A DNA stretch of 64,000 bases, taken from positions 135,057-199,056 of the forward strand of contig JAMDCP010000011.1 of the NCBI GenBank assembly GCA_023489335.1, written 5' to 3'. The position numbers were made by a program, and so were the translations under genes. Below the pieces are notes generated by a model. It saw only the letters and a list, made by a program, of their open reading frames with translations, was not told the DNA's origin and ran no database searches. Positions 18,758-35,431 of the stretch are shown piece by piece. The DNA comes from Deltaproteobacteria bacterium (GTDB taxonomy: Bacteria; SZUA-79; Acidulodesulfobacterales; Acidulodesulfobacteraceae). How positions within the stretch are numbered: the stretch's first letter is position 1; every line of letters begins with the position of its first letter.

Positions 18758-18846
18758 TATTACAAAAATGTAATAAAAATGTAACATAAATTTAACATAA
18801 ATTTAACAGAACCGTCATAAAAAACCGGCAGTGTCTCTGTTATACT
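18758..18846 (+). promoter_or_regulatory. Six 11-bp-phased T(G/T)TAAYA/CGTCATA repeats plus extended -10 (TGtTATACT)
   Basis: The core T of each repeat is at 18760, 18771, 18782, 18793, 18804 and 18815. The last unit is CCGTCATAAAA. The -10 hexamer is at 18841-18846. Confidence 0.65.
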
Positions 18847-18914
18847 AATCTAAAATTATTATTTATAAGATGTTGTTTTAAAAATGATTTTAACCTTTTT
18901 ATAACGGAGGAGAC

Positions 18915-20096
18915 ATGAACAGGAGAGATTTTATAAGATTAACGGGATTAGGTTTTTTAGGAGGCGGATTAGCTTTAAGCGGCTTTAAACTTAAAGATGC
19001 AGAAGCGGATGCGGACGGCTTAGGCTCAAGTCAAAATAAATTTAAAAAGCCAGAGCATGTCGTCTTAATAATGCAGGAAAATAGAAGTTTCGACCACTAT
19101 TTCGGCATGATGGACGAAACAATAGACGGGCAGCCCAAAAGGGTACTGGAGCTTGGAATAACCGACGGCATGGGCGGAAGCATCAAGCCGTATGATTTAG
19201 GATTTAATTATGTAACCCCCGACCATGTGGACCCCAATCATTCATGGGAAGGCCTTCATACGATATACAATAACGGCAAAATGGACGGATATTTTTTAAA
19301 CGGGATAAACCAACCCGTTGACGATTATAAGGTTATAATGGGCTATTATAATACTAAAAAGGCCTTATACCCTTATTATTTATACGCTTCCAACTTTACC
19401 CTCTGCCAGAACTATTTTCATTCCATTATGGCTCCCACCCAGCCAAACAGGCTTTATCAGATTGCAGGGCAATCAAACGGCCATATAACCGATGCCCCTC
19501 CAAGAAAACCTTATGAGTTTCCCACAATATTCAACAGGCTTGAAAAGGCTAAAATATCGTGGAAAATATATGTGGAGGGCTGGCCGAATCCAAAAAAATA
19601 TGTTCACCACTGGGTGCCTGTCATATGGTTCGAGAGTTTTATGAAAGATAAAAGGTTATGGAATAAAATCAGGCCGGCCCATGAGTATTTCGAGGATATA
19701 AAAAACGGGACGCTTCCAAAGTTCAGCTGGCTTGTTCCGGATTTTAAAAATTCCGAGCATCCGCCCGCAGATGTCAAAACAGGCATGCGCTATACCGTAA
19801 AACGGGTCGAAGCCTTAAGGAAAAGCCCCCTGTTTTCGAAATCGGTAATATTTTTAAACTGGGACGAATGCGGCGGCTTCTATGACCATGTTGTACCCCC
19901 TGTAGTCGATTATTACGGGCTTGGAATGAGGGTGGGCTGTATAATCATTTCTCCATTCGTTAAAAAAGGATATATCTCGAATGTCAGGCATGAGCATGCC
20001 TCGATACTTAAATATGTCGAAAACCTCTGGGGGCTTGACCCGTTAACGGACAGGGACAGGTACGCAAACGGGTTCGAAGATGTTTTTCTTTCGTAA
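18915..20096 (+). CDS. Tat-exported phosphoesterase (phospholipase C / acid phosphatase AcpA family)
   Basis: Twin-arginine signal MNRRDFIRLTGLGFLGG. Phosphoesterase-family motifs VVLIMQENRSFDHYFG and WDECGGFYDHV. Confidence 0.8.
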   Translation: MNRRDFIRLTGLGFLGGGLALSGFKLKDAEADADGLGSSQNKFKKPEHVVLIMQENRSFDHYFGMMDETIDGQPKRVLELGITDGMGGSIKPYDLGFNYVTPDHVDPNHSWEGLHTIYNNGKMDGYFLNGINQPVDDYKVIMGYYNTKKALYPYYLYASNFTLCQNYFHSIMAPTQPNRLYQIAGQSNGHITDAPPRKPYEFPTIFNRLEKAKISWKIYVEGWPNPKKYVHHWVPVIWFESFMKDKRLWNKIRPAHEYFEDIKNGTLPKFSWLVPDFKNSEHPPADVKTGMRYTVKRVEALRKSPLFSKSVIFLNWDECGGFYDHVVPPVVDYYGLGMRVGCIIISPFVKKGYISNVRHEHASILKYVENLWGLDPLTDRDRYANGFEDVFLS

Positions 20097-20159
20097 ACTT
20101 AAATGTTTTTAAAGATGTAAAAAATGTAAAAAAATAAAAATAAAATAGAGGAAACTATC

Positions 20160-20636
20160 ATGGATTTATATGTAGAGGAAAGCGGTATTGAATTACTAAA
20201 AAAAACGGATCTTATCTTAAAAGCGATTTCGGATGAAAGGAAAATGGATGAAAGTTATAAAAAAAGGATTATGAAAAAAATTGCGATAGACTTAAGAATT
20301 GCCGTAAAGCATATAGAATTTTATATCGCTAAGTGTGAGCGCTCGGGCGAAGGTAGTGAAGAAATTGAAGTAAATATCGACCTTGCGGAAAGTATTATTA
20401 AACTGTTGGAGGCTTCTTTGGGCACGGATAATTCGGAAAGATTCGAGGAATATTATAATACCGCATCAAATTTATTGTCCGATTTAAAAGATTTGGAAGA
20501 GGAACAAGAAGAGGAGGAAAGGGAGGAAGAGGAAGCCCGGGATGAGACATGTTTTGAAGAGGGGGAAATAGAGAATGAAAAAGAGACCGATGAAACCGGC
20601 GAAGAAAGGAGCAGGGAAGAATTGGAAGAATTTTGA
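20160..20636 (+). CDS. Hypothetical highly acidic protein
   Basis: ORF with an RBS (AGAGGAAA). The C-terminal third is about 50% Glu/Asp. No recognisable family. Confidence 0.4.
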   Translation: MDLYVEESGIELLKKTDLILKAISDERKMDESYKKRIMKKIAIDLRIAVKHIEFYIAKCERSGEGSEEIEVNIDLAESIIKLLEASLGTDNSERFEEYYNTASNLLSDLKDLEEEQEEEEREEEEARDETCFEEGEIENEKETDETGEERSREELEEF

Positions 20637-21024
20637 AAAACTGCTATTAATAGTTAGTTTAATTTTCATAACAGGTATAGCCGTTTCCGGTTGTGCTGCC
20701 GTAACAAAGCCCACCCCGCCTCCGCTTACCATCCCCCAGATTGTATCTATGTGCAAAAATCATATTCCTCAAAATGAAATCATTAGCAGATTGAGGGCAA
20801 GCGGGGAGGTATTTTACCTCAGCGCCGAAGGAGTAATAAAACTGCACAAACAAGGCGTTTGCACAAAGGTATTAAACTATATGCTCAAAACAGGGATAAG
20901 GGCAAGGGAGGAGCGGGCGGCAATCAGGGGCGCAAGGCACAGATGGTGGTGGTATAACCAGCAGTGGTATTTTGGTCCGCCGTTTGGTCCATGGGTGGGC
21001 CCCGTTCCATATTGGTGGTATTAG
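20575..21024 (+). CDS. Hypothetical lipoprotein with Trp/Pro-rich C-terminus
   Basis: Lipobox AVSGC. The end reads RHRWWWYNQQWYFGPPFGPWVGPVPYWWY. It overlaps the previous ORF by 62 nt. Confidence 0.45.
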   Translation: MKKRPMKPAKKGAGKNWKNFEKLLLIVSLIFITGIAVSGCAAVTKPTPPPLTIPQIVSMCKNHIPQNEIISRLRASGEVFYLSAEGVIKLHKQGVCTKVLNYMLKTGIRAREERAAIRGARHRWWWYNQQWYFGPPFGPWVGPVPYWWY

Positions 21025-21039
21025 AAATAGGAAGAAAAT

Positions 21040-21132
21040 ATTACAACTGTAATATTTGTAACAATTTTGTAACAATTTTTAACGGTAATTTAACCGAGCT
21101 GTAATAATTTTGTAATATTCGTCTGCTATAAT
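21040..21132 (+). promoter_or_regulatory. Six phased TGTAAYA-type repeats ending 14 nt before an extended -10 TGcTATAAT
   Basis: Core T at 21059, 21070, 21080, 21091, 21102 and 21113. The -10 hexamer TATAAT is at 21127-21132. Confidence 0.7.
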
Positions 21133-21214
21133 TATCAACATGAATCACGCAGGTTCAATTTCAATACCTTACTTAACTTTAACTATAAAATTTAATTTAG
21201 GAGGAAGTTTTTTT

Positions 21215-23626
21215 ATGAAAAACCAGATAAAAGGAATATTAGTATGCATCATACTCTTGTTCCCCTTTTTATTTTTTAATGTTAGCGCTTTTGCTAAAAA
21301 GCCTGTTTATCTTGGGGAAGCGGCAATTAAAGCGCAAAAGATGAAAAAGAAGGAGGAGGAAAAGAAAAAATTATTTAAATCGGCATATTCCGTGTCTCAC
21401 ATTACTAAAAAAGAGATTAAGGCTACCGTAAATCCGATGACCGGCATCGTAAATATTTTGAGTCAAAAGCCGAGCATATATGCAACTTCATCCGGTCCAA
21501 ACGGAATGAGGGCTCACATCTACATGAGGGCATTTAATGGCGGGCAAATAACCGAGGAGTTTGACGGAATCCCGTTAAACAGCATATTTGACGGGAATGC
21601 CCAGAACTTTGCTTCCGTCAGGAATAATGTTCCTTTTACGCTGGGAGATGTATCTTCCATAAATATTTACAGGGGGATAAATAATCCCAGCGTTAACTCG
21701 TTTAACTCTTTGGGCGGTACAATAAATTTCAATCCTTTGATGCCCTCAAGGAAGTTTGGCGCAACGATTTTTGGAGGATGGGGTTCTTTTGCGACGACGG
21801 AGTATGGCGCTTCTATTAATTCAGGAAGACTTCCAGGCGGCGTCTATATGTATTTGAAGGCATCAAGAAACGATTCCAACGGCTGGATGCAGAACACCTC
21901 CGATTCTAATAATTCTTACTATTTATCCCTTGTTAAACCTTATAATGACGGGCGGTCGAATATCAATTTTATATTTATGCGAAACGACAACACTGGCTAC
22001 ACCCCTCATTCCATTCCTTTTCCATTAGAAGAGCAGTATGGAAATACATTTAATTGGCCGTCAGGTGTCAGCAACTCATATAATAAGGATATTTCGGCAT
22101 ATTATATCCTTGGAATAAAGAATTATGTGGATAAAAATTTATCCTTTTTAAATAAAGCCTTTTATCATACCAATAATTACGACAGGGTCAGTTACACAAA
22201 TCCGCAGTGTTTAACCAAGATATTTAATAATCCCTCTAATCCTGATTATATCGCTTCGGAGCAGGGCGTTTGTTCGCCTATTGCGACGACATTTAACGGC
22301 GCTTATGTCCAGCCTTATTACCTTCCTAATACACCCGAAAGCTGGGTATATCCAAGCTCCACAAACAGTTATAATCCGGAAAGCTTATTTCCTGACGGCG
22401 GAGGCGATTCATATTACGGAACTGATTATCACCTTTATCTGGAAGACATGAATGAAATAGGCGATATTCCGATGTTTACGGTAAAAGTTCCGCGTAATAA
22501 AATTGTATTCGGTGGCCAGTTTTTATACGGAACTATAAGGTCGGCGGAATACTGGTACGGCACTTCGGATGTTCCTCAAGGGACACTGTATAACGATGCG
22601 TGGAACGAACACGATACAAGGTCGAACGACACGGTATTTATTCAGGATAAGATAAGCATATTGCCAAAAAGGTTTTATATTGAGCCAGGGTTTAAATATA
22701 ACACCGTAAATACCACGGCGGCAGATAATCCGGGATACTATTATCCGATAGGCGGCACGGTGTCAAACATATATAATTATTTCGAACCGTCCTTAGGCAT
22801 TAGTTATAATTTACTTAAAAACTGGGTAGTTTACGGTTCATGGGGAAAAATTCAAAAGGTGCCGAATATCGGCGCTTATTATTCATTAATCGGAGCGGCA
22901 ACATTAAACGGTGCGCCTTACACACCTGGGCTTACAACGGTTAAGCCGGAATACATTACCGATTACGAACTCGGAACCAGATATAAATTAAGCGGATTAA
23001 GCGTCGGCGTAAACGGTTATAAAGAAGATTTTCAAAATACATTCAGCTATGCATATAACCAAGCCTTAGGCATTTCCGAGGAGTATAACACGGGAAATTC
23101 AATGTACGAAGGCGTGGAGTTAGAAGGGAAATACAGGTTTAACCGCCGTCTTGGCGTTTTTGCAAATTGGTCGTATAATACCGCAATTTACACGACAAAT
23201 TACTCCGGCAATTACGGCACTATCCTGTCAGGCGAACATATAGCAAATGTCCCGAGGCATTTAGCGAATATCGGCGTTGACGGTAACATACTTAAAACAG
23301 GCTTCAGGTTCTGGGGGACATACACGGGGCAGCAGTACCTGAACAATTCCTACGGAAACCCCACGGATATTTACCATCTCGGCGGTTACTGGGTCTTTAA
23401 CGGCTACATAAGCCATTATATTAATTTTAACAGGTTTGGCGCGTTAAAAGATTTACGGTTCAAGGGGGTTAAGGTTTCTCTGAATATCGATAATATATTA
23501 AACAGAAATTACAACCAGTGGGCGTATATAGGTTATAATACCGTTAACCGCGTTAATTATACTTATCCTATGGGTATGCCCGGCATGCCGAGGTTTGTTT
23601 TTGTCAATGCCCAGGTGAAGTTTTAG
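21215..23626 (+). CDS. TonB-dependent outer-membrane receptor
   Basis: RBS AGGAGGAAG before the ATG at 21215. Signal peptide, plug domain, beta-barrel, C-terminal ...AQVKF. Paralog of the gene at 32773-35226. Confidence 0.85.
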   Translation: MKNQIKGILVCIILLFPFLFFNVSAFAKKPVYLGEAAIKAQKMKKKEEEKKKLFKSAYSVSHITKKEIKATVNPMTGIVNILSQKPSIYATSSGPNGMRAHIYMRAFNGGQITEEFDGIPLNSIFDGNAQNFASVRNNVPFTLGDVSSINIYRGINNPSVNSFNSLGGTINFNPLMPSRKFGATIFGGWGSFATTEYGASINSGRLPGGVYMYLKASRNDSNGWMQNTSDSNNSYYLSLVKPYNDGRSNINFIFMRNDNTGYTPHSIPFPLEEQYGNTFNWPSGVSNSYNKDISAYYILGIKNYVDKNLSFLNKAFYHTNNYDRVSYTNPQCLTKIFNNPSNPDYIASEQGVCSPIATTFNGAYVQPYYLPNTPESWVYPSSTNSYNPESLFPDGGGDSYYGTDYHLYLEDMNEIGDIPMFTVKVPRNKIVFGGQFLYGTIRSAEYWYGTSDVPQGTLYNDAWNEHDTRSNDTVFIQDKISILPKRFYIEPGFKYNTVNTTAADNPGYYYPIGGTVSNIYNYFEPSLGISYNLLKNWVVYGSWGKIQKVPNIGAYYSLIGAATLNGAPYTPGLTTVKPEYITDYELGTRYKLSGLSVGVNGYKEDFQNTFSYAYNQALGISEEYNTGNSMYEGVELEGKYRFNRRLGVFANWSYNTAIYTTNYSGNYGTILSGEHIANVPRHLANIGVDGNILKTGFRFWGTYTGQQYLNNSYGNPTDIYHLGGYWVFNGYISHYINFNRFGALKDLRFKGVKVSLNIDNILNRNYNQWAYIGYNTVNRVNYTYPMGMPGMPRFVFVNAQVKF

Positions 23627-23664
23627 CATGACTTAGGCCTTATACCTCTCTCTTAAGGCATAAA

Positions 23665-23700: not shown

Positions 23701-23761
23701 AATAAAAGTTTATATTTATAAATATGAAATTAACTTATTTTCGGAGGCTTAGAACACTTAT

Positions 23762-24553
23762 ATGAAACCAAAATATTTATATTTATTTGCGGCATCGATG
23801 TTTTCCCTCTTATTAATTATGTCTTACTCTGCTTCCTCTTATGCCCTTTCCAAATGGCAAACAAATTACAATAAATCTCTGGAATTATTGAAATCTAAAA
23901 AATACGGTTCAGCTTTAAAAGAGGCACAAATTGCCCTTAAAGAAAATAGAAATCCATACACGCTCGAACTGACAGGCAACATTCTGCAGTTTCTAAAGAA
24001 ATATAATTCGAGCAACCGTTATTTTAAAGAAGCTGTGGCTTTGTTTATAGCCGGCGCCGGTAAAAATAGCTCCAAAAAAGCCCCCGATAAAAAAACGGCA
24101 GACAGGTTTATAAAAATGGTCAAAAATAATATCGGATTAAATTATCTATTCATAGGCAATAATTTATTGAAGAAAAACAATGTTAAGGAAGCAATAAACA
24201 CCTATAAAAAGGGATTGACTTACGCCAGCGAAAGGCATCTAAGCAATATGTTGATGTTAAACTCGGCAATGGGGTACGAAAATATAGATAAATTTAGGCC
24301 TGCCGCCTTATTAGCCGACAAGGTTATTGCGAATAATCCTAAGAATCCTTTTGCATACTTCGTTAAAGGAAGGGCAGAATATAGTTTGAACGAATTAGAT
24401 TCCTCGATTGCGGATTTAAATACCGCGGCGAGTATTGACCCCTCGAATGACTTGTTTAAAAATGCGCTTGAAATGGCAAAAGAAAGAAAGCGGGAAACGG
24501 AACAAAAAAACCTTAATCACATCAAGCACAGCGCCGGAAGTTTATTTAAATAA
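23762..24553 (+). CDS. Secreted TPR-repeat protein
   Basis: Signal peptide plus TPR-like helical repeats (e.g. AINTYKKGL..., AEYSLNELDSSIADLNTAASIDPSN). Confidence 0.55.
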   Translation: MKPKYLYLFAASMFSLLLIMSYSASSYALSKWQTNYNKSLELLKSKKYGSALKEAQIALKENRNPYTLELTGNILQFLKKYNSSNRYFKEAVALFIAGAGKNSSKKAPDKKTADRFIKMVKNNIGLNYLFIGNNLLKKNNVKEAINTYKKGLTYASERHLSNMLMLNSAMGYENIDKFRPAALLADKVIANNPKNPFAYFVKGRAEYSLNELDSSIADLNTAASIDPSNDLFKNALEMAKERKRETEQKNLNHIKHSAGSLFK

Positions 24554-24576
24554 ATAATTTTAATCGTGGACTTATT

Positions 24577-27411
24577 ATGAGAAAAGGGTTGATTTTAATT
24601 GCATATATTTATTTTAATCTTATATTGTTTTTATTTTCAGGCAATTCTTATGCTTTTAACCGCGCCGGCAAGTCGAATACCCTTGATATATCGAAGCCCG
24701 TTATTATAACAAAACATAACCTTTTGTACTTCCGCCATACCCTTCCCACCGGCCGCATTATAACCCCCGTCGGGACTTTGAACGGAACGGCTAACTTTGC
24801 CACTAATGTTGCAGTTTATCATAATCTTGTTGCGGTACTGGCGAACGGGGCAACCTTTGTTCAAACTATTACTATATATAATAAAAAAACTCTCGTTAAA
24901 ATTGCCCGGTATAAAGCATATAAAGCCAAACGGCTTAAGCGATTTAAAGAACCGGGGGTTGTAGTATATAATCCTAAAAAAGCTAAAAATGCCTCTATTA
25001 ATAGGTCAATGGCTTCTTTTACTTATGCAAAAAATGATAATCAGGATTTATTTCAAGGGTTAGCCTTTGGCCCGAACGGTATTTTATATGCCTCCGGCGG
25101 CGGTGTTAACGATATAATCACTCTTAAACTTATAAATCATAGATTAACGGTTATAAAAAGATATCCTCTTAAATGGCAAAAATTTCCAAAAAATCAGTAT
25201 CCCTACCAGTATCAGGGGCATCAATTTAAAAAACCCTATCTTTTTTATCCGGACTTTATTACTATCTCTAAAAACGGAAAGTATTTATATGCGTCTGGTC
25301 TTTTATCCAACTCTGCGGCAAGGATTGATTTGATGACGGGGAAAACCGCTTATGTAAATGCAGGGCCTTACCCATTTGCCTTAAGCCTTTCGGATAACGA
25401 TAAAAGGCTTGTCGTAAGCGATTGGGGGGCAAACGGCGTTACGATAATAAATCCAATTACAATGAAAAAGTTAGGGTTTGTTTATACGGGTAAAATTTTG
25501 TCTAAAGACAGCTATGGCGCCGGCGTTCATCCTACCGCCGTAATTAACATTAAAGGTACGCCGGATGTTTTAGCCGCTGATTCTAATAACGACCGTATTT
25601 ATGAAATTAACTCAAAAACCCTGAAAGTCGTTAAGGTCATTAACGATGCCCCTTATAAAAATGCGCCTCCCGGAAGTTATCCTGATGGAATAGCCCTTAG
25701 AAACGGTCATATTTTTGTTGCCAATGCGGGGAATAACGATATCGCCGTCTATAATTTAAAAAGCGGAAAAAGAATAGGGCTTATCCCTACTGCATGGTAT
25801 CCTACCGCCGTTGCGTCATCCGGAAGTTCCATATATATTGTTAATGCCAAGGGTTTGGGCAGCGGTCCAAACTTTTATTATCAATGGGTCGGGGATTTTA
25901 TGGACGGTGCGGTGCAAAAGGTAAATCTTAATTATGCCTTTAAACATATTAAATATTTAACATACAGGTCTTTAAAGAATAACGGTTTTTTATTGTCCCA
26001 AAGGTTAAAACGAGAGGCTCAAAATAGTAAGATAACCAAATTCTTAAGGTCGCATATAAAACATGTCGTATTTATTTTAAGAGAAAACAAAACCTTCGAT
26101 GAGGACTTTGGCGATTATAAAAGGGCAGGCGCTTGGGCAGACCCCCGTCTTGACCTTTATAATAAAAAAGAACTTCCCAATGCTTATAGTTTAGCAAATA
26201 ATTATGCCCTTTTCGTAAACTTTTATGCCGACGGCGAGGTTACGGCGCAGGGGCATGAGTGGACGACGGGAGCATCGGATTCCGATTTTGTTCAAAGGAC
26301 ATGGCCTGAATACTATTCCGGCAGGGGACTTGTCGGAAATCCGGGCTGGACGCAGGATTTAAGGAAATTAAATATTAAAGACCATTATAAGTATATGCCT
26401 ATTTACGACAGCTTGACCGCGCTAAAGCACTGGTCCAATCCGTGGATAGCGTATCCTCAAAATCTATACATATTTAATGATATGCTTGAACATAATGTAT
26501 CTTTTGAGGATTTCGGGGAGTTTGTGTCCCGCAACAGAATCGGCGATATTTCAAGCGCAATGAAAAAGCGCATCGATTTAAAATCATACGGCTGGGATAG
26601 GTTTATTTTAGATACTACAAGAGCGAAAGTTTTTTTAAACTTTGCAAAAAAAAGGATTAAAGAGGGTAATTTTCCACAGTTTACCTATATCTGGCTGCCG
26701 GATGACCATACCGCCGGTCAAAAACCATGTTATTATACACCAGATTATTATGTCGCGAACAACGATTACGCAACCGGTGAGATTATAAGTTATTTAAGCC
26801 GTTCGCCTATATGGAAAAACACCCTCGTATTTATCACCGAAGACGACGCCCAATCCGGCGCAGACCATATAAATGCCCACAGAACATTTGCATTAATGAT
26901 AGGACCGTATGTTAAAAGAGGCGCCATAATTGCGCACCGGTATTCCCAAGTAAACATAGTAAAAACCATTGAGGCTATATTTAACCTGCCGTCTATGTCC
27001 CAATGGGATGCTAATACTTCCGTTATTAGAAACGGATTTACCGATAAGCCGGATATGACACCGTTTAATGCCATGCCGATGAGAGTAAAGCCTGCCTTAA
27101 ATCCGGGAATGTGCCGAAGCAAGATAGATAAATTGAGATTAAAACTAGGCAAAAAAGGCGGCTGGGAGGCTTCGGTGGAGTCCGCTTCATCACAAACATC
27201 GCAATCGACACGACAGCCTAAACTCTCCTTAAGCGAACAATATACACCTGTTTCACTCTTTAAAGTTCCAGGACCACAGCAGTTTAAACAGGAGTGGATT
27301 GCTTCGAAGGGCGTAAAATCATATGAGAATGTGATGGGGTATATCAAAAAATTATCGAAAAGCGAAAATAGACCCGTAGCAAGTATACTTGCAGGAAAAC
27401 TGCCGGATTAA
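24577..27411 (+). CDS. Secreted fusion protein: YncE/YVTN-type beta-propeller plus phosphoesterase (PLC/AcpA, alkaline-phosphatase superfamily) domain
   Basis: Signal peptide. The N-terminal half has repeated propeller-like blades. The C-terminal half has VVFILRENKTFDEDFG, YIWLPDDHTAG and TEDDAQSGADHINAHRT, matching the motifs of the 18915 gene family. Confidence 0.7.
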   Translation: MRKGLILIAYIYFNLILFLFSGNSYAFNRAGKSNTLDISKPVIITKHNLLYFRHTLPTGRIITPVGTLNGTANFATNVAVYHNLVAVLANGATFVQTITIYNKKTLVKIARYKAYKAKRLKRFKEPGVVVYNPKKAKNASINRSMASFTYAKNDNQDLFQGLAFGPNGILYASGGGVNDIITLKLINHRLTVIKRYPLKWQKFPKNQYPYQYQGHQFKKPYLFYPDFITISKNGKYLYASGLLSNSAARIDLMTGKTAYVNAGPYPFALSLSDNDKRLVVSDWGANGVTIINPITMKKLGFVYTGKILSKDSYGAGVHPTAVINIKGTPDVLAADSNNDRIYEINSKTLKVVKVINDAPYKNAPPGSYPDGIALRNGHIFVANAGNNDIAVYNLKSGKRIGLIPTAWYPTAVASSGSSIYIVNAKGLGSGPNFYYQWVGDFMDGAVQKVNLNYAFKHIKYLTYRSLKNNGFLLSQRLKREAQNSKITKFLRSHIKHVVFILRENKTFDEDFGDYKRAGAWADPRLDLYNKKELPNAYSLANNYALFVNFYADGEVTAQGHEWTTGASDSDFVQRTWPEYYSGRGLVGNPGWTQDLRKLNIKDHYKYMPIYDSLTALKHWSNPWIAYPQNLYIFNDMLEHNVSFEDFGEFVSRNRIGDISSAMKKRIDLKSYGWDRFILDTTRAKVFLNFAKKRIKEGNFPQFTYIWLPDDHTAGQKPCYYTPDYYVANNDYATGEIISYLSRSPIWKNTLVFITEDDAQSGADHINAHRTFALMIGPYVKRGAIIAHRYSQVNIVKTIEAIFNLPSMSQWDANTSVIRNGFTDKPDMTPFNAMPMRVKPALNPGMCRSKIDKLRLKLGKKGGWEASVESASSQTSQSTRQPKLSLSEQYTPVSLFKVPGPQQFKQEWIASKGVKSYENVMGYIKKLSKSENRPVASILAGKLPD

Positions 27412-27417
27412 TAGTTT

Positions 27418-27945
27418 ATGAATTATAACATTAGAGATATTAAATTAACGGATTTTGAAGATATTGCAAAAAATTATTATTTAAGATACGAAGAATTAGA
27501 ATTAAATACAAATCTTGGGGTAAGCGTTAAAAGGGAGCCGCCTTCGTTAGCCGAAGAACTAGATTTTTTTTTAGGTTTGTATAAAAAAATTATGGGGGAC
27601 GATGCCTGCGGAAAAGTTGCAATCGTCGATGAAAAAGTTGTAGGGATAACCACTATTCAAAGATTCGCAAAAGGATATGAAACCGACCATATAGGTATCT
27701 TAGGAATTGATATAAATATGGAATACAGAAATTTTGGAATCGGACAGAATTTATTGAGTCAAATTATTAAGGAAGCAAAAACAAAATTTGAAATGTTAAT
27801 TTTGGAAGTAGCGACATTCAACGAAATAGCCATGCATATATACAAAAAATTGGGTTTTTTGCAGTATGGCTTAAGGCCTAAAGCATTAAAAAGGGGAAAT
27901 GTATATTTTGATTATATTCTAATGTGTAAAGAACTTTTAAAATAG
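27418..27945 (+). CDS. GNAT family N-acetyltransferase
   Basis: Acetyl-CoA-binding motif YRNFGIGQNLL and the IAMHIYKKLGF helix. Confidence 0.7.
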   Translation: MNYNIRDIKLTDFEDIAKNYYLRYEELELNTNLGVSVKREPPSLAEELDFFLGLYKKIMGDDACGKVAIVDEKVVGITTIQRFAKGYETDHIGILGIDINMEYRNFGIGQNLLSQIIKEAKTKFEMLILEVATFNEIAMHIYKKLGFLQYGLRPKALKRGNVYFDYILMCKELLK

Positions 27946-27964
27946 AAATTTTTGCCGGTGTGCC

Positions 27965-28589
27965 TTAAATCTCGGTAAATATATCCTTCAGGTCTATCGT
28001 CAAGTCCAGCGTTTTAATATAAATTATGCCGTTACCCTCCGCTTTAACCGACAATATCTCACCCCATTTTTCTAAAGCGGCATTCGTTTTAAGTTTGTCG
28101 CCTGTCCTTCTAAATACCTCAATGCTTTTTGTCTCAGGATCTACTATTAGGTACTCCAAAACCCCGCTTTTTTCATACACCTCTTTTTTAATCTTTATGT
28201 CGTAGTATTCGTTAGAGGGGGAGAGTATCTCTATTATAAGGTCAGGGTGACCGTCTATCCCCCTTTTTTTTGATTATATCCTTATTTTTATTGGATATAA
28301 ATATTATATCCGGCTGGTAAGCATTTTTGTTATCGAGATAGACATCTATTGGGGCATAATAAACATAACCTAATTTATTTTTCTTTACATGGTTGGCTAT
28401 TAGTACCCCCAAGTTTCTTAATATAGCTTGATGTTCGGTTAATGGCGACGGTGTCATTATTAGTTCTCCTTCGATTAGTTGATAGGGGCTTCCTTCGGGA
28501 AGGTTGAAGTAATCCTTTGCCGTGTATTTTTTGGGCGAATCAACGGGGTATGTCTCTTCTAATTTTTCCAATAAAGATGAACGGGTCAT
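27965..28589 (-). pseudogene. Uma2 (DUF820) family endonuclease split by a frameshift in an A8G5 run
   Basis: The N-terminal ORF (28242-28589) carries YQLIEGELIMTPSP...HQ...QPDIIFI. The C-terminal continuation (...PDLIIEILSPSNEYYDIKIKKEVYEKSGVLEYLIVDP...) is in another frame. The frames switch at the forward-strand ccccc tttttttt run at about 28259-28271. Confidence 0.7.
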
Positions 28590-28645: not shown

Positions 28646-28999
28646 TTAACTCAGTAATATACTATTTTTAATCATTTTTTTAAAGTTATCGTTTGATTGA
28701 AGTTCTTGTTCGGTTGCCGCAATCAAATCAAGAGATGTTCCTATTTTTTCCGCAAACCACATATAATAAGGCCTGATTCGTTCAAGGGGATTTTTTTCGA
28801 TTGACTTTGTAATTATAAATAAATCGATATCGCTTAAGCCGGACTCTTCGCTTTTGGCAAAAGAGCCGATTAATCTGACCTCAATTATTTCAGGAAAGAT
28901 GTTTAAAGCCTCGCTGGATATCTCTTTTAATTTAGTTAAAACAATATCACGATTGAAATAAAATGCTCTCACAGAATTTGATGATATCGTCTGCCGCAT
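28646..28999 (-). CDS. Nucleotidyltransferase (MNT-type, antitoxin-like)
   Basis: Motif LIGSFAKSEESGLSDIDLFII (GS...SDID). The true start may be the internal GTG. Confidence 0.7.
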   Translation of the reverse strand: MRQTISSNSVRAFYFNRDIVLTKLKEISSEALNIFPEIIEVRLIGSFAKSEESGLSDIDLFIITKSIEKNPLERIRPYYMWFAEKIGTSLDLIAATEQELQSNDNFKKMIKNSILLS

Positions 29000-29354
29000 T
29001 TATAGCCTCCATGGCTTGCTTTTCCAAAAAATAATCCTCGGGTTTTCCCGTTGAAAACCCGTCGGGATATCTTGAAGGTATATAGAACATATCCAATATT
29101 TTAGCGCTGTTTTTAATATTTAAAGGAAAATCTATTTCTAAACCCGTTGATTTATCGGAGAGTATATTTATCATCTCTGTAAGTGAATGTCCCCAGAGGT
29201 TTATGCCGTTTTTAAGCCCAAGCGATTTAATAGTTTTTTCGGCCGCCTGCTGAGAAGTAAAGCAACACCACTCAAAGTATTGATGGTCGTAATCAAGCTT
29301 TGCTTTTTGAAAGTCTCTTTTGCCCTGATTATACCAATCTTTCCATCTGTTCAT
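28947..29354 (-). CDS. HEPN domain protein (toxin-like partner of MNT)
   Basis: The N-terminal half matches HEPN (GKRDFQKAKLD...FTSQQAAEKTIKSL...GHSL). It lies directly upstream of and overlaps the MNT gene. Confidence 0.65.
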   Translation of the reverse strand: MNRWKDWYNQGKRDFQKAKLDYDHQYFEWCCFTSQQAAEKTIKSLGLKNGINLWGHSLTEMINILSDKSTGLEIDFPLNIKNSAKILDMFYIPSRYPDGFSTGKPEDYFLEKQAMEAINAADDIIKFCESILFQS

Positions 29355-29640
29355 AAGGCGCCTATCGGGTATATATAATGTACAATATAAACGAATTTAA
29401 GATAAAGACTCCGTCGCCATGTTTGCATATATTTTATATTTTACCATAATAAAATAGGTTTATAAATCTAAATAATAAAATATTTTTATTCAAAAATTTT
29501 ATTTAAGTTATCTTGATTTATATTTTAAGCCAAGCCATTCAGGCTGATATTTTTATCGACAAATTAATCCATGATTTATATAAAAATCAAATAATATTAT
29601 GCCGATGGGGAGGGCGGGTAAAGCCTGCCCGCCTCCGCTT

Positions 29641-29746
29641 TTTCACAATTATTACAAAAATTTAATAATTCGTAATAAATTGTAACCAAATTATCACAAA
29701 ACTTTAACCGGATTGTCATAATTGTGTAACATTCATTTGCTAAAAT
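29641..29746 (+). promoter_or_regulatory. Nine phased T(G/T)T(A/C)AYA repeats ending 14 nt before an extended -10 TGcTAAAAT
   Basis: Core T at 29643, 29653, 29663, 29673, 29683, 29694, 29705, 29716 and 29727. The -10 hexamer is at 29741-29746. Confidence 0.7.
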
Positions 29747-29755
29747 ATAAAAATA

Positions 29756-29860
29756 TTTGCGGGCGGACATCCCCCTTTAACCTCCCCACCCGCAAATAAA
29801 CGGCGTGAATAAATTATACATTAGTTATTATATAAAAAGATAAATTCGCGGGTGGGGAGG
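29756..29860 (+). promoter_or_regulatory. Structured 5' leader with mutually exclusive GC-rich pairings
   Basis: Segment B, CCTCCCCACCCGCAAA (29781-29796), can pair with segment A, TTTGCGGGCGG (29756-29766; 10 of 11 bp), or perfectly with segment C, GCGGGTGGGGAGG (29848-29860; 13 bp). Confidence 0.45.
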
Positions 29861-29929
29861 AAATGAAACTGTCTATTATTTTTAAAGAAAATCGTTATTA
29901 AAAAAAACCAAAACCTTACAGGAGGATTC

Positions 29930-32386
29930 GTGAAAAAACGAGTATTTTACTTTTTTGCTGTCATATCCATTTTTATCCAGCTTATTTTACACCTTTTTGT
30001 CTTACATTCCGCATTTGCCCAGGCGGCGGAAAAAAGCGTCTCAAAAAAACCAATATATCTTGGCGAAATTCAATCTTCTTACTTAAAAAAAATTCTTACC
30101 GAAGAAGAAAAAGAATTAAAAAAGACGGATTTAAAATTCACCAAAGAGGAAATTTTTAAATCGACCCAAAGCAAATTAATTGTGAACAAAGACGAGCTTA
30201 GGGCAACGTCGCCCGTCGGCGGCGCAACGCAAGCCTTATCTGTAATACCTGGGGTTAGAAGCGAAACATACGGTCCGACAGGGGCAAGCAGAGGAAGTTT
30301 TAGTATCAACGGAATACAGCAGGGGTGGGGAGGTTTGATTGGAGAAACCGATGACGGAAGCATTGCCGTTACATTTGACGGCGTTCCGATGGGTAATCCA
30401 GGTTCAGGTTTATGGTCAACCGCTTTAATGCCGGAGATGTCGTTGATTTCAGGAATTAATGTTATTTATGGGCCAGGGAATCCTGTAAGCAGGTGGTATA
30501 ACGCCCTTGGCGGAACATTGGGTTTTATTCCGTTGCAGCCTTCCATTAAGCCAGGAGGCTCTTTAAGCCTTACTTACGGCAGTTTTAATACCAAAAATAT
30601 TAATTTTAATATAAAAACAGGCATGATTGACGGTTATTCCGCCGTTATTGCCGGAGGTATTACAAGTTCAAACAGTTATAGAACAGGTTTCGGGTTTTAT
30701 AACCCGGCTACCGACTATGCGTATTACGGGAAAATAGTTAAAGTATTTTCCAACGGAAACATTGGATTAGGCGCATATATTGCACATTCACAGGGTTATA
30801 GGCCGACCTTTATACCGACAAGCCCGATATATCCCGGCAACGGAAGTCCTGGAGTAACGGTTAACGGTTACTACCCAAACGGAAACAGCGTACCGGGTCC
30901 ATATTTTTCACAGCAAACGACAGGTTATTACAGCTCATTAGCCTTTGATATATGGAATAAGCTTGCCAGAAACCACATGTATTTAATCTATTCTCCGCTT
31001 AATCTTAAAGTTTCTAAATCCGTTTCGTTTCATAATTTGGTATGGTATAGAGAGGGCGAAAGGCTCCATTATCATCAAAATGATTTTTCGCAAGGCGCCG
31101 GAAATTTATACGAATATAATAACCCTGAAGACGAAGTTTACGGGGATAAGACATATTTTAATATAAACGATCCTCATAACTTGATTAAATTCGGCGGCTG
31201 GTTTCTAAAAAGCCATTATATATCGAGAAACGCGTTTTATAATCCTTTTGGGACATATTGTACTGCCCAGCCGAGCGGCATAAGCGAAGTCACGACTATC
31301 GCAAATCCTTGCGCCTACAGGTATAGCGACTTTTATCAAACCTTTGGGTCCGCATTTATCCAGGATACGCTCCATTTTTTTAAAAAATTAAGGATAACCC
31401 CCGGTTTGAACTTCGTTACCTTTAAGACGAACTTCTATAATAATGCTTCGCAGTATTATCCCGATGCGGTTTTATTAAATCCGGCAGGTAATGACGATAC
31501 TATTCCCGGCCATTCCGCAACACAGGCGCCAAACGCTTCTACATATTTTGAAAAATTAGAGCCTTCATTGGGCGTGAATTACAAATTGACCAAAAATGTT
31601 GCCGTTTACGGAAACTATTCCGATGCTTATCAAAATCCACATTTGGGCGGAGGCGGAGGCCCGTTTCAACAGATAGGCGCTAATGCCTTAGAACCCGAAA
31701 AAAATGAATATTACACGGCAGGCTTCAAGGTTTTGGTTCATCATGATAATTTATTAAATAATTTTGTTCTAAATGTTAATTATTATCATGAGCATTTCTC
31801 GAATATGCTGCTGTCTTATACTTTAGCCGACGGAACTTCGATTTACGCCTCGGGCAGTTCTAACTATGACGGCGTGAATCTGACGGCATCCGACAACCCC
31901 ATAGGTAATCTCCACCTTTTTACAAACATAAGCTATGAAAAGGCAGTGTATTCGACTTATCTTACAGGCGGAGTTAATTATAACGGCGATAATGTTCCAT
32001 ATGTGCCGGAAGAGACATTTAATTTAGGCGCTTATTATAAGCTTTTAATCGGCCATATCGCCTATTCTCCTAAGATATGGGATATCTACACAGGCAAACA
32101 GTATATCATGGACGATGTTACGGGGGCGCCGTCAGGCCAAACAATTCCAAGTTTTAATGTTTTAAATGCTTCAGTGAGCGCTAAAATCCCGTTTGGCGGC
32201 AGGCATGCCGGCTTACCGAAAGCGGCGATTATTAAACTCACGGTTTTAAACCTGTTAAACCATAAGTATAACGAATATGAGTATATCACCGCAGGCGGAT
32301 ATTTTGGAGGGAATAGCGCAGGGTCGGTTTTAGCATACCCGGGAATGCCGATAGCGGCTTATTTAACGATGACATTAAAGTTTTAA
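29930..32386 (+). CDS. TonB-dependent outer-membrane receptor (divergent from the other two)
   Basis: GTG start after GGAGG. Signal peptide, plug domain, barrel, terminal ...TLKF. Confidence 0.85.
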   Translation: MKKRVFYFFAVISIFIQLILHLFVLHSAFAQAAEKSVSKKPIYLGEIQSSYLKKILTEEEKELKKTDLKFTKEEIFKSTQSKLIVNKDELRATSPVGGATQALSVIPGVRSETYGPTGASRGSFSINGIQQGWGGLIGETDDGSIAVTFDGVPMGNPGSGLWSTALMPEMSLISGINVIYGPGNPVSRWYNALGGTLGFIPLQPSIKPGGSLSLTYGSFNTKNINFNIKTGMIDGYSAVIAGGITSSNSYRTGFGFYNPATDYAYYGKIVKVFSNGNIGLGAYIAHSQGYRPTFIPTSPIYPGNGSPGVTVNGYYPNGNSVPGPYFSQQTTGYYSSLAFDIWNKLARNHMYLIYSPLNLKVSKSVSFHNLVWYREGERLHYHQNDFSQGAGNLYEYNNPEDEVYGDKTYFNINDPHNLIKFGGWFLKSHYISRNAFYNPFGTYCTAQPSGISEVTTIANPCAYRYSDFYQTFGSAFIQDTLHFFKKLRITPGLNFVTFKTNFYNNASQYYPDAVLLNPAGNDDTIPGHSATQAPNASTYFEKLEPSLGVNYKLTKNVAVYGNYSDAYQNPHLGGGGGPFQQIGANALEPEKNEYYTAGFKVLVHHDNLLNNFVLNVNYYHEHFSNMLLSYTLADGTSIYASGSSNYDGVNLTASDNPIGNLHLFTNISYEKAVYSTYLTGGVNYNGDNVPYVPEETFNLGAYYKLLIGHIAYSPKIWDIYTGKQYIMDDVTGAPSGQTIPSFNVLNASVSAKIPFGGRHAGLPKAAIIKLTVLNLLNHKYNEYEYITAGGYFGGNSAGSVLAYPGMPIAAYLTMTLKF

Positions 32387-32392
32387 TTTTTC

Positions 32393-32425
32393 CGCCCTCC
32401 AAGTCCCTTTTGGATTTGGAGGGCG
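32393..32425 (+). terminator. Hairpin after the receptor gene
   Basis: cgccctccaa pairs with ttggagggcg (10-bp stem). Confidence 0.5.
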
Positions 32426-32444
32426 ATGTATAAGTTTTGTTAAA

Positions 32445-32532
32445 CTGTAACAAAATTGTAATAAAACCGTAATAAAATTTAACGAAGATGTAACTAAAAT
32501 GTAATAATTCTGTAACATTCATTTGTTAATAT
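32445..32532 (+). promoter_or_regulatory. Seven phased TGTAAYA-type repeats ending 14 nt before an extended -10 TGtTAATAT
   Basis: Core T at 32448, 32459, 32470, 32480, 32491, 32502 and 32513. The -10 hexamer is at 32527-32532. Confidence 0.7.
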
Positions 32533-32772
32533 ATATAATCAACGACGAGTAAAAATCCGGTTCGATTCCAAGTTTTTATTTTTAATCCTTTTTAAGTCTT
32601 AATTTAACCATTAATAACCTTAATTTAGATTATTCAACCACGGAACTTTATTATTTTAAGATAAGTTTATAAAAATGCAAATTCGGCTATCATTATCATT
32701 TTTTTATTAATACTAAAGAATAGTTAGTATCACATCTTAAAATAATAACAATAACAAAAAAGGAGAAGAGAA

Positions 32773-35226
32773 ATGAAATTGAAAGTTTCCGATGGTAAGT
32801 TAAGAAAGATTAGATTGGGGATTCAGTTAGACAGAGAACAATTGAAGCTGTTCCTGTTTATTGTCATTTCGGTATTTGCCGTATTTTATGCCCCGTCTAA
32901 GGCAAATGCCAAAGTAATTGTATTAAAAGCCGAGAAAAAGGCTAAGAAAGTGAAAAGAACCCCTTTTACAGTGTCAAAAATCAAAAAGAGGGCTATCGAT
33001 GCGACAAAATCGCCTATGAACTCTATCGAGACCATATTAAATCAAGCGCCTTCCATACACGCAAGCACCAGCGGACCTAATAATATTCGCGCGCGTGTGG
33101 AGTTAAGGGGCTTTGGCACCGGCGAAGTTGCCCAAACCTTTGACGGCGTTCCTATTAATAATATGTTTGACGGAGATTCAAGCAATTATATGGATGTCAG
33201 GAATAATGTTCCGTTTACGCTCGGCGATATTTCCGGGGTTGGGATTTATTACGGCGTAAATAATCCAAGCGTAGATTCCTTCGATTCCCTCGGCGGCACG
33301 ATAAATTACGAACCTTTAATGCCAACCGGCAAATTTAGCGCCAATATATTCGGCGGATACGGGTCTTTTGCCACAAGGACTTATGGAGTAGGTATTAATA
33401 CAGGAAAGCTCTGGGAAGGAATCAGGATGTATTTGAAGGTGTCAAGAGACGATGCAAACAACTGGTATAACGGTTCGGCTTACCCCAACAGGCTCCACTC
33501 ATATTATATGTCCCTTATTAAGCCTTATAATGAAAACAGATCGCATATTTCATTCATTTTTATGAGGAATGACGATTATGCAAACGACCCCCACCTTGTT
33601 CCGGTACCGCTGCTTGACCAGTTTGGCTATAGCTGGGGATGGCCGACATCTGTTGAAAATGCGCAGGCTTATAACCAGGAGTATTACGCCATACTTGGCT
33701 GGAAGGCCTATATAAACAGGGATCTCAACTTCGATAATAAGAGTTTTTACTTTAATGAAAATATGGCAAAAAATCTTTATATAAACCCCGCATGTCATAC
33801 AAGCGCCGCAAGCGCAGGAATCAGCACGGCATCATGCGACATACCTTCAAGCATATACATTAACGGCGTGCAGCCTTATGCTTTAGGTTTCGGCAGCGGA
33901 AACTGGTCGTTAACGCCTGTTCCTACCGCTACTTACAATCCGGACCCGCAGTTTCTCGACGGTCAAAACAGCGCTACGGCTATTGCAAACGGATTTACAC
34001 CCGGGTTTGCCTACGGAACCGACAATCATTATAAAGCCGTCGATGTAACACAGTTTGGCGATATTCCAGCTGTTACTATAAGGGTTCCGAGGAACACGCT
34101 TACGGTCGGTGGGCAATTCCTTTTCGGAACATATCATAAATTAGAATCGTATTATGGAGAAGCCTATGGACCGGCTGCACCTTTTTATAATATTGCAAAT
34201 AATCAACATGGCACGGAGAATATGGATTCGGTCTATGCTCAGGACAAATTAGATATTATCCCGGATAAATTATTTCTTGAGCCAGGCCTTAAATATCAGG
34301 TAGTGGACATGACCGTTGCGGCAAACGAAACATGGCCGAGCATTAATCCATACGGCGGAACTGTATCGGATACATTTACCGAAATAGAACCTACAATAGG
34401 TTTAAGTTATAATCTTCTTCCAAACTGGAATTTTTACGCAACTTACGGAAGAACGATGAAGGCTCCGAATTATACTGCTTATGAATCCGTGCTTACTTCT
34501 TATAACGGAACTAACTTTACTACATCGTTAAGCGGAGTAAAGCCGGAATATGTGACGGATTACGAGCTTGGAACAAGGTACAAATTAGACAATCTTGAAC
34601 TTTCGGCAAATGTATATAAAGAAGACTTTTCCAATACATTTGGCACATATTTAAACACCACAACGGAAATTACCTACGAGACAAACGGCGGCAGGTCCCA
34701 ATATGAGGGTTTACAGCTTGAAGGGCAATATGATTTCAATCGTCATCTGAATGTTTTTGCAAACTATTCGTTAAATACAGGGAAATTTATTTCTAACTAT
34801 TCAGGCCCGGCAGGAAATGTTATATCGGGCGAGAATGTTCCGTTTATACCAAGGCATCTTGCCAATATCGGATTGGATGAAAACTATTTCAATATAGATG
34901 CAAGGTTGTGGGGAACATACACAGGCGAGCAGTTTGTGGAAGATATTAACGGAAATCCTACAAGCGCGTTCCACCTCGGCGGTTACTGGTTGTTTAATTT
35001 AAATTTAAGCCGTTATTTTAACTTTAAGAGAATAGGCATCCTCAAAGAGGCAGACCTTAAAGGTATGAAGCTTAGCCTATCCATCGACAATATTTTAGAC
35101 AGAAAGTACCTTACAGGCGCAATTCCGGGATTTGTCGCCACATATCCGAATTCAAACGCAATTTATGCGGAATACTTGCCGGGTATGCCAAGGTTTGTTT
35201 TTCTTACCTCGTCATTTAAATTTTAG
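32773..35226 (+). CDS. TonB-dependent outer-membrane receptor (paralog of 21215-23626)
   Basis: RBS AAGGAGAAG. Shares long blocks with the 21215 gene (FDG(I/V)P(L/I)N..FDG...VRNNVPFTLGD...GMPRFVF...KF). Confidence 0.85.
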   Translation: MKLKVSDGKLRKIRLGIQLDREQLKLFLFIVISVFAVFYAPSKANAKVIVLKAEKKAKKVKRTPFTVSKIKKRAIDATKSPMNSIETILNQAPSIHASTSGPNNIRARVELRGFGTGEVAQTFDGVPINNMFDGDSSNYMDVRNNVPFTLGDISGVGIYYGVNNPSVDSFDSLGGTINYEPLMPTGKFSANIFGGYGSFATRTYGVGINTGKLWEGIRMYLKVSRDDANNWYNGSAYPNRLHSYYMSLIKPYNENRSHISFIFMRNDDYANDPHLVPVPLLDQFGYSWGWPTSVENAQAYNQEYYAILGWKAYINRDLNFDNKSFYFNENMAKNLYINPACHTSAASAGISTASCDIPSSIYINGVQPYALGFGSGNWSLTPVPTATYNPDPQFLDGQNSATAIANGFTPGFAYGTDNHYKAVDVTQFGDIPAVTIRVPRNTLTVGGQFLFGTYHKLESYYGEAYGPAAPFYNIANNQHGTENMDSVYAQDKLDIIPDKLFLEPGLKYQVVDMTVAANETWPSINPYGGTVSDTFTEIEPTIGLSYNLLPNWNFYATYGRTMKAPNYTAYESVLTSYNGTNFTTSLSGVKPEYVTDYELGTRYKLDNLELSANVYKEDFSNTFGTYLNTTTEITYETNGGRSQYEGLQLEGQYDFNRHLNVFANYSLNTGKFISNYSGPAGNVISGENVPFIPRHLANIGLDENYFNIDARLWGTYTGEQFVEDINGNPTSAFHLGGYWLFNLNLSRYFNFKRIGILKEADLKGMKLSLSIDNILDRKYLTGAIPGFVATYPNSNAIYAEYLPGMPRFVFLTSSFKF

Positions 35227-35290
35227 CCTTCAGGATCTAAGTTAATTTAGGTTATTCGATGCTTAGCTGGTTTAACAGGTTAATTTTTAT

Positions 35291-35338
35291 CCGCAAAAGC
35301 CATATTTGCATGTTTAATGGCTTTTGCGGAAATTTTTA
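35291..35338 (+). terminator. Rho-independent terminator
   Basis: ccgcaaaagccat pairs with atggcttttgcgg (13-bp stem), followed by aaattttt. Confidence 0.6.
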
Positions 35339-35368
35339 CATCGGACGGGCTGCTACGGCGCCCGCCTA

Positions 35369-35431
35369 TTTAAAATTGTAACTAAAACTTAACATAACTG
35401 TAATATTTTTGTAATATTCATTTGATACAAT
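35369..35431 (+). promoter_or_regulatory. Four or five phased TGTAAYA-type repeats ending 14 nt before an extended -10 TGaTACAAT
   Basis: Core T at 35379, 35390, 35401 and 35412, with an off-phase unit at 35371. The -10 hexamer is at 35426-35431. Confidence 0.65.

Follow-up and report, generated by a model that had tools for sequence, protein, structure and literature searches.

Phased direct-repeat arrays as candidate tandem Pho boxes of a phosphate regulon in Candidatus Acidulodesulfobacterales

Phased repeats upstream of phosphoesterase, receptor, and TonB genes

We analyzed a 64-kb window (64,000 nucleotides; contig JAMDCP010000011.1, positions 135,057 to 199,056 of the forward strand) from a bacterium of the clade Candidatus (Ca.) Acidulodesulfobacterales. 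Within this window, five arrays of four to nine direct repeats precede five transcription units, whose first genes encode a phosphoesterase (array A), three TonB-dependent receptors (arrays B to D), and TonB-ExbB-ExbD (array E) (Table 1). The repeat unit is TGTAAYA, with the variants TTTAACA, CGTAATA, and TGTCATA, followed by four bases that are mostly A/T. All arrays are on the coding strand of the downstream gene, and the opposite strand scored far lower. A preliminary description of this DNA had placed five arrays at these positions with a spacing of 10 to 11 bp throughout, and both observations held: among the 32 units claimed, 21 spacings are of 11 bp and 6 of 10 bp. The coordinates in that description mark the third base of the 7-mer, so that a unit starts at the coordinate minus 2.

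To avoid circularity, we scored each array with a position matrix built from the other four. The best four phased units of the held-out arrays reached 31.5 to 39.2 bits, while the highest four-unit score outside the arrays in the 64 kb was 19.9 bits (both strands, with the 30% GC island included), and the top four-unit score in dinucleotide shuffles was 23.0 bits. Equally phased arrays are therefore not a property of AT-rich DNA here, an explanation that the preliminary description had raised and for which neither the window nor the shuffles provided a comparable case. Of the 32 claimed units, each scored with its own array held out, 29 were above the 99th percentile of all window 11-mers, and three (18760, 29653, and 29705 in the earlier coordinates) were weak, which lowers the realistic counts to 5 or 6 units in A, 6 in B, 7 or 8 in C, 7 in D, and 4 in E. 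The information is concentrated in the TGTAAYA cores (0.8 to 1.4 bits per position), with 0.1 to 0.4 bits in the A/T spacers.

In promoters B to E, the proximal unit and an extended -10 form an identical 22-mer, TGTAAYATTCRTYTGNTANNAT. These four exact copies, already reported in the preliminary description, compare with an expectation of 0.03, and no shuffle reached four. The layout in B to E is TGTAAY, 10 nt, and a predicted -10 of the form TAnnAT. Array A does not have the 22-mer; a degenerate unit stands between its last good unit (18813) and the putative -10, and that last good unit is 27 to 28 bp from the -10, one helical turn farther than in B to E. At promoter D, where the absence of a -35 had been claimed, a simple scan can also read GTAACA-16-TATAAT (32512-32539), so the claim is not strict for this promoter.

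A GC-rich hairpin with a T-run lies directly upstream of array C, and similar hairpins separate units C and D and units D and E, so that each unit appears to be independently transcribed. A generic promoter and terminator scan of the window gave counts not above those of shuffles and was informative only for the hairpin before array C. An Rfam search of the whole window at the gathering score found no riboswitch or leader RNA in the receptor 5' untranslated regions (UTRs) and returned only two tRNA-Val genes.

Table 1. Features of the window and scores of clade pstS arrays
Feature	Position	Strand	Remarks
Array A	18758..18823	+	units 18758 (weak), 18769, 18780, 18791, 18802, 18813; held-out 39.2 bits
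Putative extended -10 of A	18838..18846	+	TG 18838-39, TATACT 18841-46; inferred from sequence
Phosphoesterase, PLC/AcpA family, 393 aa	18915..20096	+	PF04185 E=3.6e-79; PDB matches phospholipase C, AcpA 2d1g
Acidic 158-aa ORF	20160-20636	+	no Pfam family match
149-aa lipoprotein, W/Y/P-rich tail	20575-21024	+	no Pfam match; overlaps 20160-20636 ORF
Array B	21057..21132 incl. 22-mer	+	units 21057, 21068, 21078, 21089, 21100, 21111; held-out 31.5 bits
Predicted -10 of B, TATAAT	21127-21132	+	in 22-mer 21111-21132
TonB-dependent receptor B, 803 aa	21215..23626	+	Pfam plug and beta-barrel domains
TPR protein	23762-24553	+	Pfam
944-aa beta-propeller-phosphoesterase	24577-27411	+	PF04185
GNAT acetyltransferase	27418-27945	+	Pfam
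GC-rich hairpin and T-run	29612..29640	+	directly upstream of array C; terminator scan and sequence
Array C	29641..29746 incl. 22-mer	+	nine claimed units 29641-29725, 7-8 credible; held-out 32.7 bits
Predicted -10 of C, TAAAAT	29741-29746	+	in 22-mer 29725-29746
TonB-dependent receptor C, 818 aa, GTG start	29930..32386	+	Pfam
Similar hairpin, C/D	32392-32425		read from sequence
Array D	32446..32532 incl. 22-mer	+	seven units 32446-32511; held-out 37.2 bits
Predicted -10 of D, TAATAT	32527-32532	+	in 22-mer 32511-32532
TonB-dependent receptor D, 817 aa	32773..35226	+	Pfam; weakly similar to FecA in PDB
Similar hairpin, D/E	35291-35329		read from sequence
Array E	35377..35431 incl. 22-mer	+	units 35377, 35388, 35399, 35410; held-out 33.4 bits
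Predicted -10 of E, TACAAT	35426-35431	+	in 22-mer 35410-35431
tonB	35484-36209	+	Pfam
exbB	36289-36966	+	Pfam
exbD	36994-37398	+	Pfam
L206 pstS array, best four units			48.0 bits
L208 pstS array, best four units			44.4 bits, exact 22-mer
L209 pstS array, best four units			38.4 bits
L210 pstS array, best four units			43.8 bits
L211 pstS array, best four units			41.4 bits

The arrays at pst loci, in the clade, and in unrelated metagenomes

We recovered further loci from genomes and metagenomes by motif or protein searches; these lie outside the window and carry L numbers. A contig of Ca. Acididesulfobacter diazotrophicus (L206), reached via a porin-like protein specific to the clade, encodes pstS-pstC-pstA-pstB-phoU, and in front of this pstS stand six phased units, all near perfect, with an extended -10. 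The array is the strongest of all that we saw, and the only other one in the 21.7 kb scanned precedes the porin gene. With the L206 PstS as the query, we found clade orthologues of 73 to 100% identity, named PstS by NCBI, and took four further loci, three with pstSCAB-phoU (L208, L209, and L210) and one where only pstS was called (L211). The preliminary description had suggested inspecting pst promoters for the same phased arrays, and in all five clade pst loci (91.5 kb in total) one strong array lies directly 5' of pstS, the only array elsewhere being that of the porin. The four-unit core and its distance to the extended -10 are as in the window. A 581-aa protein near the L208 pstS, tried as a porin relative, shows no relationship to the porin, and its gene lacks an array.

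A scan of 185,579 species genomes with the 22-mer returned 74 loci. About 31 of these are from acid-mine-drainage metagenome-assembled genomes (MAGs), some named Ca. Acididesulfobacter or Ca. Acidulodesulfobacterium, and have two to seven phased units upstream of the 22-mer; the remaining loci have none. The same MAGs encode orthologues of the window receptors and TonB-ExbBD with the order kept and 62 to 98% identity. From these shared genes and promoters we place the window in Ca. Acidulodesulfobacterales, and the GC range published for the clade, 30 to 37% (PMC6776010), agrees with this placement; contigs of uncultured MAGs contain sequence identical to the window. When we aligned 36 distinct clade promoters on the 22-mer, periodic information appeared at -33, -22, -11, and 0, plus TTCGTTTGnTAnAAT, and farther upstream of these four units the information was at background. 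The core operator therefore consists of four units, or two dimer sites, and on this alignment the 6- to 9-unit arrays of the window are locus-specific extensions of the four-unit core.

An orthologue of receptor B (74% identity) in L042, orthologues of receptor C (90% identical) in L009 and L060, and orthologues of receptor D (62 to 93% identity) in L009, L021, L056, L060, and L066 all lie behind arrays. The array C units are kept in the orthologous promoters of L009 and L060, and the flanks and leaders diverge. Promoters of the array E type are also present in L040, L045, and L078, each before tonB-exbB-exbD orthologues, and the orthologues of the tetratricopeptide repeat (TPR) protein in L066 and L033 have arrays of their own. 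In L066 and L057, exbB-exbD is positioned between the array and a phosphate:H+ symporter gene; the major facilitator superfamily (MFS) transporter adjoining exbD in L057 has as its best NCBIfam match by far TIGR00887, phosphate:H+ symporter (E=2e-93, below the equivalog cut-off). Across the clade, the cargo of array promoters comprises a porin, TonB-dependent receptors, tonB-exbB-exbD, the TPR protein, an NHL-propeller protein, a small lipoprotein, and the MFS transporter.

The porin-like outer-membrane protein lies behind arrays in more than 13 loci (L006, L017, L022, L027, L028, L038, L049, L051, L055, L058, L061, L067, L077, and L203-L207). It has 490 to 565 aa and the C terminus ...YFLQARIAF, and it forms 39 clusters, all annotated as hypothetical and found in this clade only. 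Searches of Pfam, NCBIfam, and PDB sequences gave no match. A four-unit array always precedes its gene, also where the homologue is as low as 47% identical and the neighbors are different, which makes the protein a candidate phosphate-starvation porin of a new family.

We also scanned a metagenome collection with a three-unit pattern that is independent of the -10, TTAACN5YGTMAYAN4TGTAAYATT. Among the loci gathered previously, this pattern matched clade loci only. In the collection, it matched at least 120 loci from organisms of 24 to 61% GC, at least 78 of them with a callable downstream open reading frame (ORF). The first downstream gene encodes PstS (PF12849) in at least 19 unrelated loci (four representatives checked with Pfam, the others by BLAST clustering). 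In L089 it encodes PstC, in L137 an OmpR-family regulator, in L081 a TonB-dependent receptor, and in both L198 and L097 an outer-membrane protein that is porin-like but has no Pfam match above the cut-off. In at least eight loci, pstB and/or phoU follows 2 to 5 kb downstream on the same strand. Two seemingly random genome matches of the 22-mer fall in pst loci as well, one between pstS and pstC in a Gallionellaceae MAG (L024 5469-5490) and one just 5' of phoU in a gammaproteobacterial MAG (L076 3707-3728). The proximal unit with its extended -10 may be used at pst promoters well beyond the clade.

Known Pho boxes and the choice of regulator

By its published definition (PMC4971064), a pho box is a pair of 7-bp direct repeats with 4 bp of A/T-rich sequence after each; it lies close to the -10 and stands in for the -35. 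For comparison we used the sequence upstream of Escherichia coli pstS, which lies 43 nt ahead of the annotated gene and which we could confirm in all but 3 of 5426 complete genomes (5423). The best array found there by the window-derived matrix was exactly the four pho-box repeats, with 22.6 bits, which is more than anything in the window outside the five arrays. The spacing also matches, with TGTCAC, 10 nt, and TATTTT in E. coli versus TGTAAC, 10 nt, and TAnAAT in the clade, where we take TATTTT to be the -10 of E. coli pstS. The two share an 11-bp period, four units toward the gene, 10 bp to the -10, and no -35; the E. coli core TGTCAT/TGTCAC resembles TGTAAYA, and TGTCATA and CGTCATA are themselves present in arrays C and A. 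They differ in that the window consensus has A rather than C at position 4, its -10 is of the extended TGn type within a strongly conserved 22-mer, its arrays reach 6 to 9 units, and the putative sites are in a distant uncultured phylum.

The PhoP boxes of Bacillus subtilis are TT(A/T/C)ACA direct repeats with 11-bp periodicity and a four-repeat core binding region. The periodicity and the four-repeat core are found here too, and TTTAACA/TTAACA is the commonest second unit. Unlike the units here, the PhoP hexamer does not have the leading TG that most of ours carry, and the content of the Gram-positive regulon differs.

Long operators are known from Streptomyces, where PHO boxes are built of 11-nt direct repeat units and include class III complex operators, with a core and less conserved extensions that are filled cooperatively; up to six units are described in S. 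coelicolor and eight in S. natalensis, and a 10-nt unit binds poorly (PMC2275107). Seven units have been proposed for E. coli ugp (PMC2275107). The preliminary description had called arrays of this length unusual, which is partly right and overstated, since the nine units claimed for array C stand at the top of the known range and not outside it. Of the published systems, the Streptomyces operators are the best model for arrays C and D, which are long and degenerate. They are unlike ours in having a GTTCACC-type unit of high GC and unrelated sequence, in that some of them repress, and in that 6 of 27 spacings here are 10 bp.

A precedent for the cargo comes from Caulobacter crescentus, whose PhoB regulon includes several TonB-dependent receptors as well as phosphatases and PstSCAB (PMC11208175). 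Here, unlike in Caulobacter, the same operator also precedes a dedicated tonB-exbB-exbD, and receptors make up most of the local cargo.

Together, the E. coli pstS match, the metagenomic pstS loci, and the clade pst loci support the Pho-box-like character that the preliminary description had assigned to the repeats. We consider it highly probable that the arrays are tandem Pho boxes, that is, operators for a PhoB/PhoP-type response regulator of the OmpR family. From sequence evidence, the receptors, the TonB motor, and the two phosphoesterases are most likely switched on by phosphate starvation and not by iron.

Under phosphate limitation, the phosphorylated regulator would bind head to tail along one face of the helix, with each 11-bp unit taking one monomer, and the four-unit core would take two dimers. 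The proximal unit ends 10 bp before the predicted extended -10 (TGnTAnAAT), and we propose that the regulator thereby takes the place of the missing -35 and, bound at this position, would recruit sigma-70-type RNA polymerase. The more degenerate upstream units, in arrays of up to nine, would be filled cooperatively from the core. The five units would then form a phosphorus-scavenging island with a Tat-exported phosphoesterase, three receptors, a propeller-phosphoesterase, and a TonB-ExbB-ExbD of its own, and the island would belong to a clade-wide regulon with pstSCAB-phoU, the phosphate:H+ symporter, and the clade-specific porin. The motif itself, with its phasing, geometry, and conservation, and its presence at pst genes are observations; in the rest of the scheme, we infer which regulator binds, that it activates and does not repress, which signal it answers, and that the upstream units fill cooperatively.

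Several points weigh against assigning the arrays to a phosphate regulator. Neither the window nor about 450 kb of clade loci yielded a gene for an OmpR-family regulator or for PhoR, so the regulator is a presumed one; the 64-kb window also has no pst or phoB gene, and tblastn with E. coli PhoB and B. subtilis PhoP found regulators only in nonclade loci. This class of motif is common to other OmpR-family regulators. A case in point is L047 (6022-6043), a Lachnospiraceae MAG in which the 22-mer is flanked by genes for an OmpR-family regulator and for the ATPase of an ABC transporter, so that operators of other members of the family can resemble the motif. The -10 elements and transcription starts are predictions from sequence, and the pst association comes from five clade relatives rather than from the source species' own pst promoter. 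Among the metagenome matches listed, about one-third are very low-GC contigs in which no ORF follows, and the pattern is thus not confined to Pho promoters. In the metatranscriptome of Tan et al. 2019, the reads per kilobase per million (RPKM) of all genes track bin or genome abundance, so that table cannot show co-regulation.

The low-GC matches (24 to 29% GC; gut, rumen, and other samples) include L086, L096, L142, L146, L165, L090, L106, L119, and about 30 others. They share nearly identical array-bearing sequence (e.g., TAGTTTTTAAGATTGTAATCAAAATTTAACATTTNTGTAACATTTTTGTAACATTC), and no ORF lies within 450 bp downstream of the array with code 11 or code 4.

The strongest competitor is an OmpR-family regulator other than PhoB that responds to another signal, such as envelope, acid, or metal stress, which would make the phosphate link partial or coincidental. 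Sites of this family are all direct repeats with about 11-bp phasing, the L047 22-mer lies beside the gene for such a regulator, and no regulator gene was found in the window or the clade loci. The strongest arrays are nonetheless those at pstS in five of five clade pst loci, a result that makes a different OmpR-family regulator unlikely. The motif furthermore marks pstS, pstC, and phoB-like genes in unrelated organisms and matches the E. coli pho boxes, and the remaining cargo (phosphate:H+ symporter and phosphoesterases) is phosphate related. We therefore regard this alternative as improbable, though it is the one to keep in mind.

Iron is the second candidate signal, with the receptors and TonB-ExbBD as Fur-repressed iron-uptake genes and the repeats as Fur-related or irrelevant. 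A published annotation lists the TonB-dependent receptors of the clade as Fe(III)-siderophore receptors of the FepA/CirA type (PMC6776010), there are weak NCBIfam matches to siderophore receptors below the threshold, and a weak Fur-like TATCATTATCATT is present in the 5' UTR of D. However, the best matches to the 19-bp Fur consensus (a GATAATGATAATCATTATC-like palindrome) in the five promoter regions have 6 to 8 mismatches, and since 59 sites in the window have 6 or fewer, the promoter matches are no better than background. The repeats are direct, oriented, and phased at 11 bp, not hexamer palindromes; the same promoter type serves pstS and the phosphate symporter; and all NCBIfam receptor matches are far below the cut-offs. 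Control of these units by Fur is thus very improbable. The best Fur-like stretch of the five promoter regions is GGCTATCATTATCATTTTT (32685-32703) in the receptor D 5' UTR, with 6 of 19 positions mismatched, which is not significant; a second, iron-responsive promoter may lie nearer to the receptor D gene.

We give an equally small chance to there being no dedicated regulator, with phased A-tracts or curved DNA, UP-element-like sequence, or a degenerate tandem repeat boosting the promoters. A/T-rich spacers at every helical turn would bend DNA, and array length varies among orthologous promoters. The information is nevertheless in the cores and not in the A/T spacers, the cores are kept across species whose orthologous proteins are down to 47 to 62% identical while the flanks diverge, and an association with a specific set of functions is not expected of generic curvature.

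The least credible alternative is that the arrays bind the NarL/LuxR-type regulator whose gene, in several clade genomes, directly precedes that of the porin: genes for a PhnD-like binding protein, a HisKA_3 kinase, and a GerE-type regulator do lie upstream of the porin promoter in L006, L061, and L207, but in L207 they head a Fer4_11/NrfD/molybdopterin/TorD-like operon of the tetrathionate-reductase type (TtrSR-TtrBCA) and so are part of the upstream unit and not the porin's, no NarL-type system is near any array in the window, and elsewhere the porin has other neighbors and yet keeps its array. The tetrathionate-reductase-like cluster directly 5' of an array-bearing porin spans 30-9838 in L207 and 1997-6151 in L006.

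The island, its neighbors, and the biology of the clade

Searches of Pfam, NCBIfam, and PDB sequences upheld the earlier cargo calls (phosphoesterases, receptors, and TonB-ExbB-ExbD), and they gave no confident substrate class for any of the three receptors. The phosphoesterase encoded at 18915 has a twin-arginine leader, MNRRDFIR, at its N terminus. The two ORFs that follow it (20160-21024) are probably cotranscribed with unit A. The second encodes a lipoprotein with a signal peptide, a Cys, and a C-terminal W/Y/P tail; its homologues lie behind arrays in L056, L060, and L021, and in L056 (1529-1924) and L060 the gene comes after an antitoxin-like ORF. The genes from 23762 to 27945 have no array of their own here, and the 135-bp gap before them holds only a hairpin; they are probably read through from unit B, though this is uncertain.

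Array A sits in a 179-bp divergent intergenic region (18736-18914) between kup, on the minus strand, and the phosphoesterase gene. The K+ transporter gene kup starts at 18735, and the first unit of array A begins 23 bp away from it, so that regulator binding could also affect kup. In L006 and L205, kup also adjoins array-bearing regions.

In the receptor C 5' UTR, a palindromic insertion of about 110 nt (29752-29862; TTTGCGGGCGGACATCCCCC ... CCTCCCCACCCGCAAA ... TTCGCGGGTGGGGAGG) does not occur in the orthologous L009 and L060 promoters and resembles a small element of the miniature inverted-repeat transposable element (MITE) or repetitive extragenic palindromic (REP) type. The leaders of orthologous receptor D promoters range from 50 to 240 nt. 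A minus-strand nucleotidyltransferase/HEPN pair (28646-29354) and a gene for a Uma2-family nuclease (28242-28589) interrupt the island before receptor C. Farther along, a low-GC (about 30%) island at about 40600-51200 encodes a ParB-like protein (45717), a DNA methylase (46429), a DnaB-like helicase (47454), and unknown ORFs, and its tyrosine integrase gene (49951-51090) abuts a tRNA-Val gene (51085-51160); it is probably an integrated mobile element. The 10 kb to the left of the window contain Sox genes and an NtrC-type two-component system and no pho genes.

Long arrays (Streptomyces and ugp; PMC2275107) and PhoB-controlled receptors in Caulobacter (PMC11208175) were already known. What is new is the lineage, the reassignment of receptors published as Fe(III)-siderophore receptors (PMC6776010), and, as members of the regulon, a dedicated TonB-ExbBD and the clade-specific porin. 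The arrays provide a sequence-defined, testable phosphate regulon for the uncultured acidophilic phylum Ca. Acidulodesulfobacterales/-ota. They would move the TonB-dependent receptors of the clade and one TonB-ExbBD from presumed iron uptake to phosphorus acquisition, and they flag the clade porin and several proteins of unknown function as phosphate-starvation genes.

A bolder joint reading, which we hold tentatively and judge slightly likelier to be wrong than right, is that TonB-dependent transport is the main phosphorus-scavenging route of the phylum, that the arrays form a hierarchy, and that the receptors are not iron-uptake genes. Its setting is acid mine drainage, which is rich in iron and in which Fe(III) ties up the phosphate. 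If this reading is true, the substrates could be organophosphates, polyphosphate, or ferric-phosphate complexes, and pstS, with its near-perfect units, would fire first and the receptors, with their long degenerate arrays, later. The pho-box sequence and promoter geometry are nearly base-for-base alike in E. coli and this very distant lineage, so the motif could be used to read phosphate-stress genes from metagenomes.

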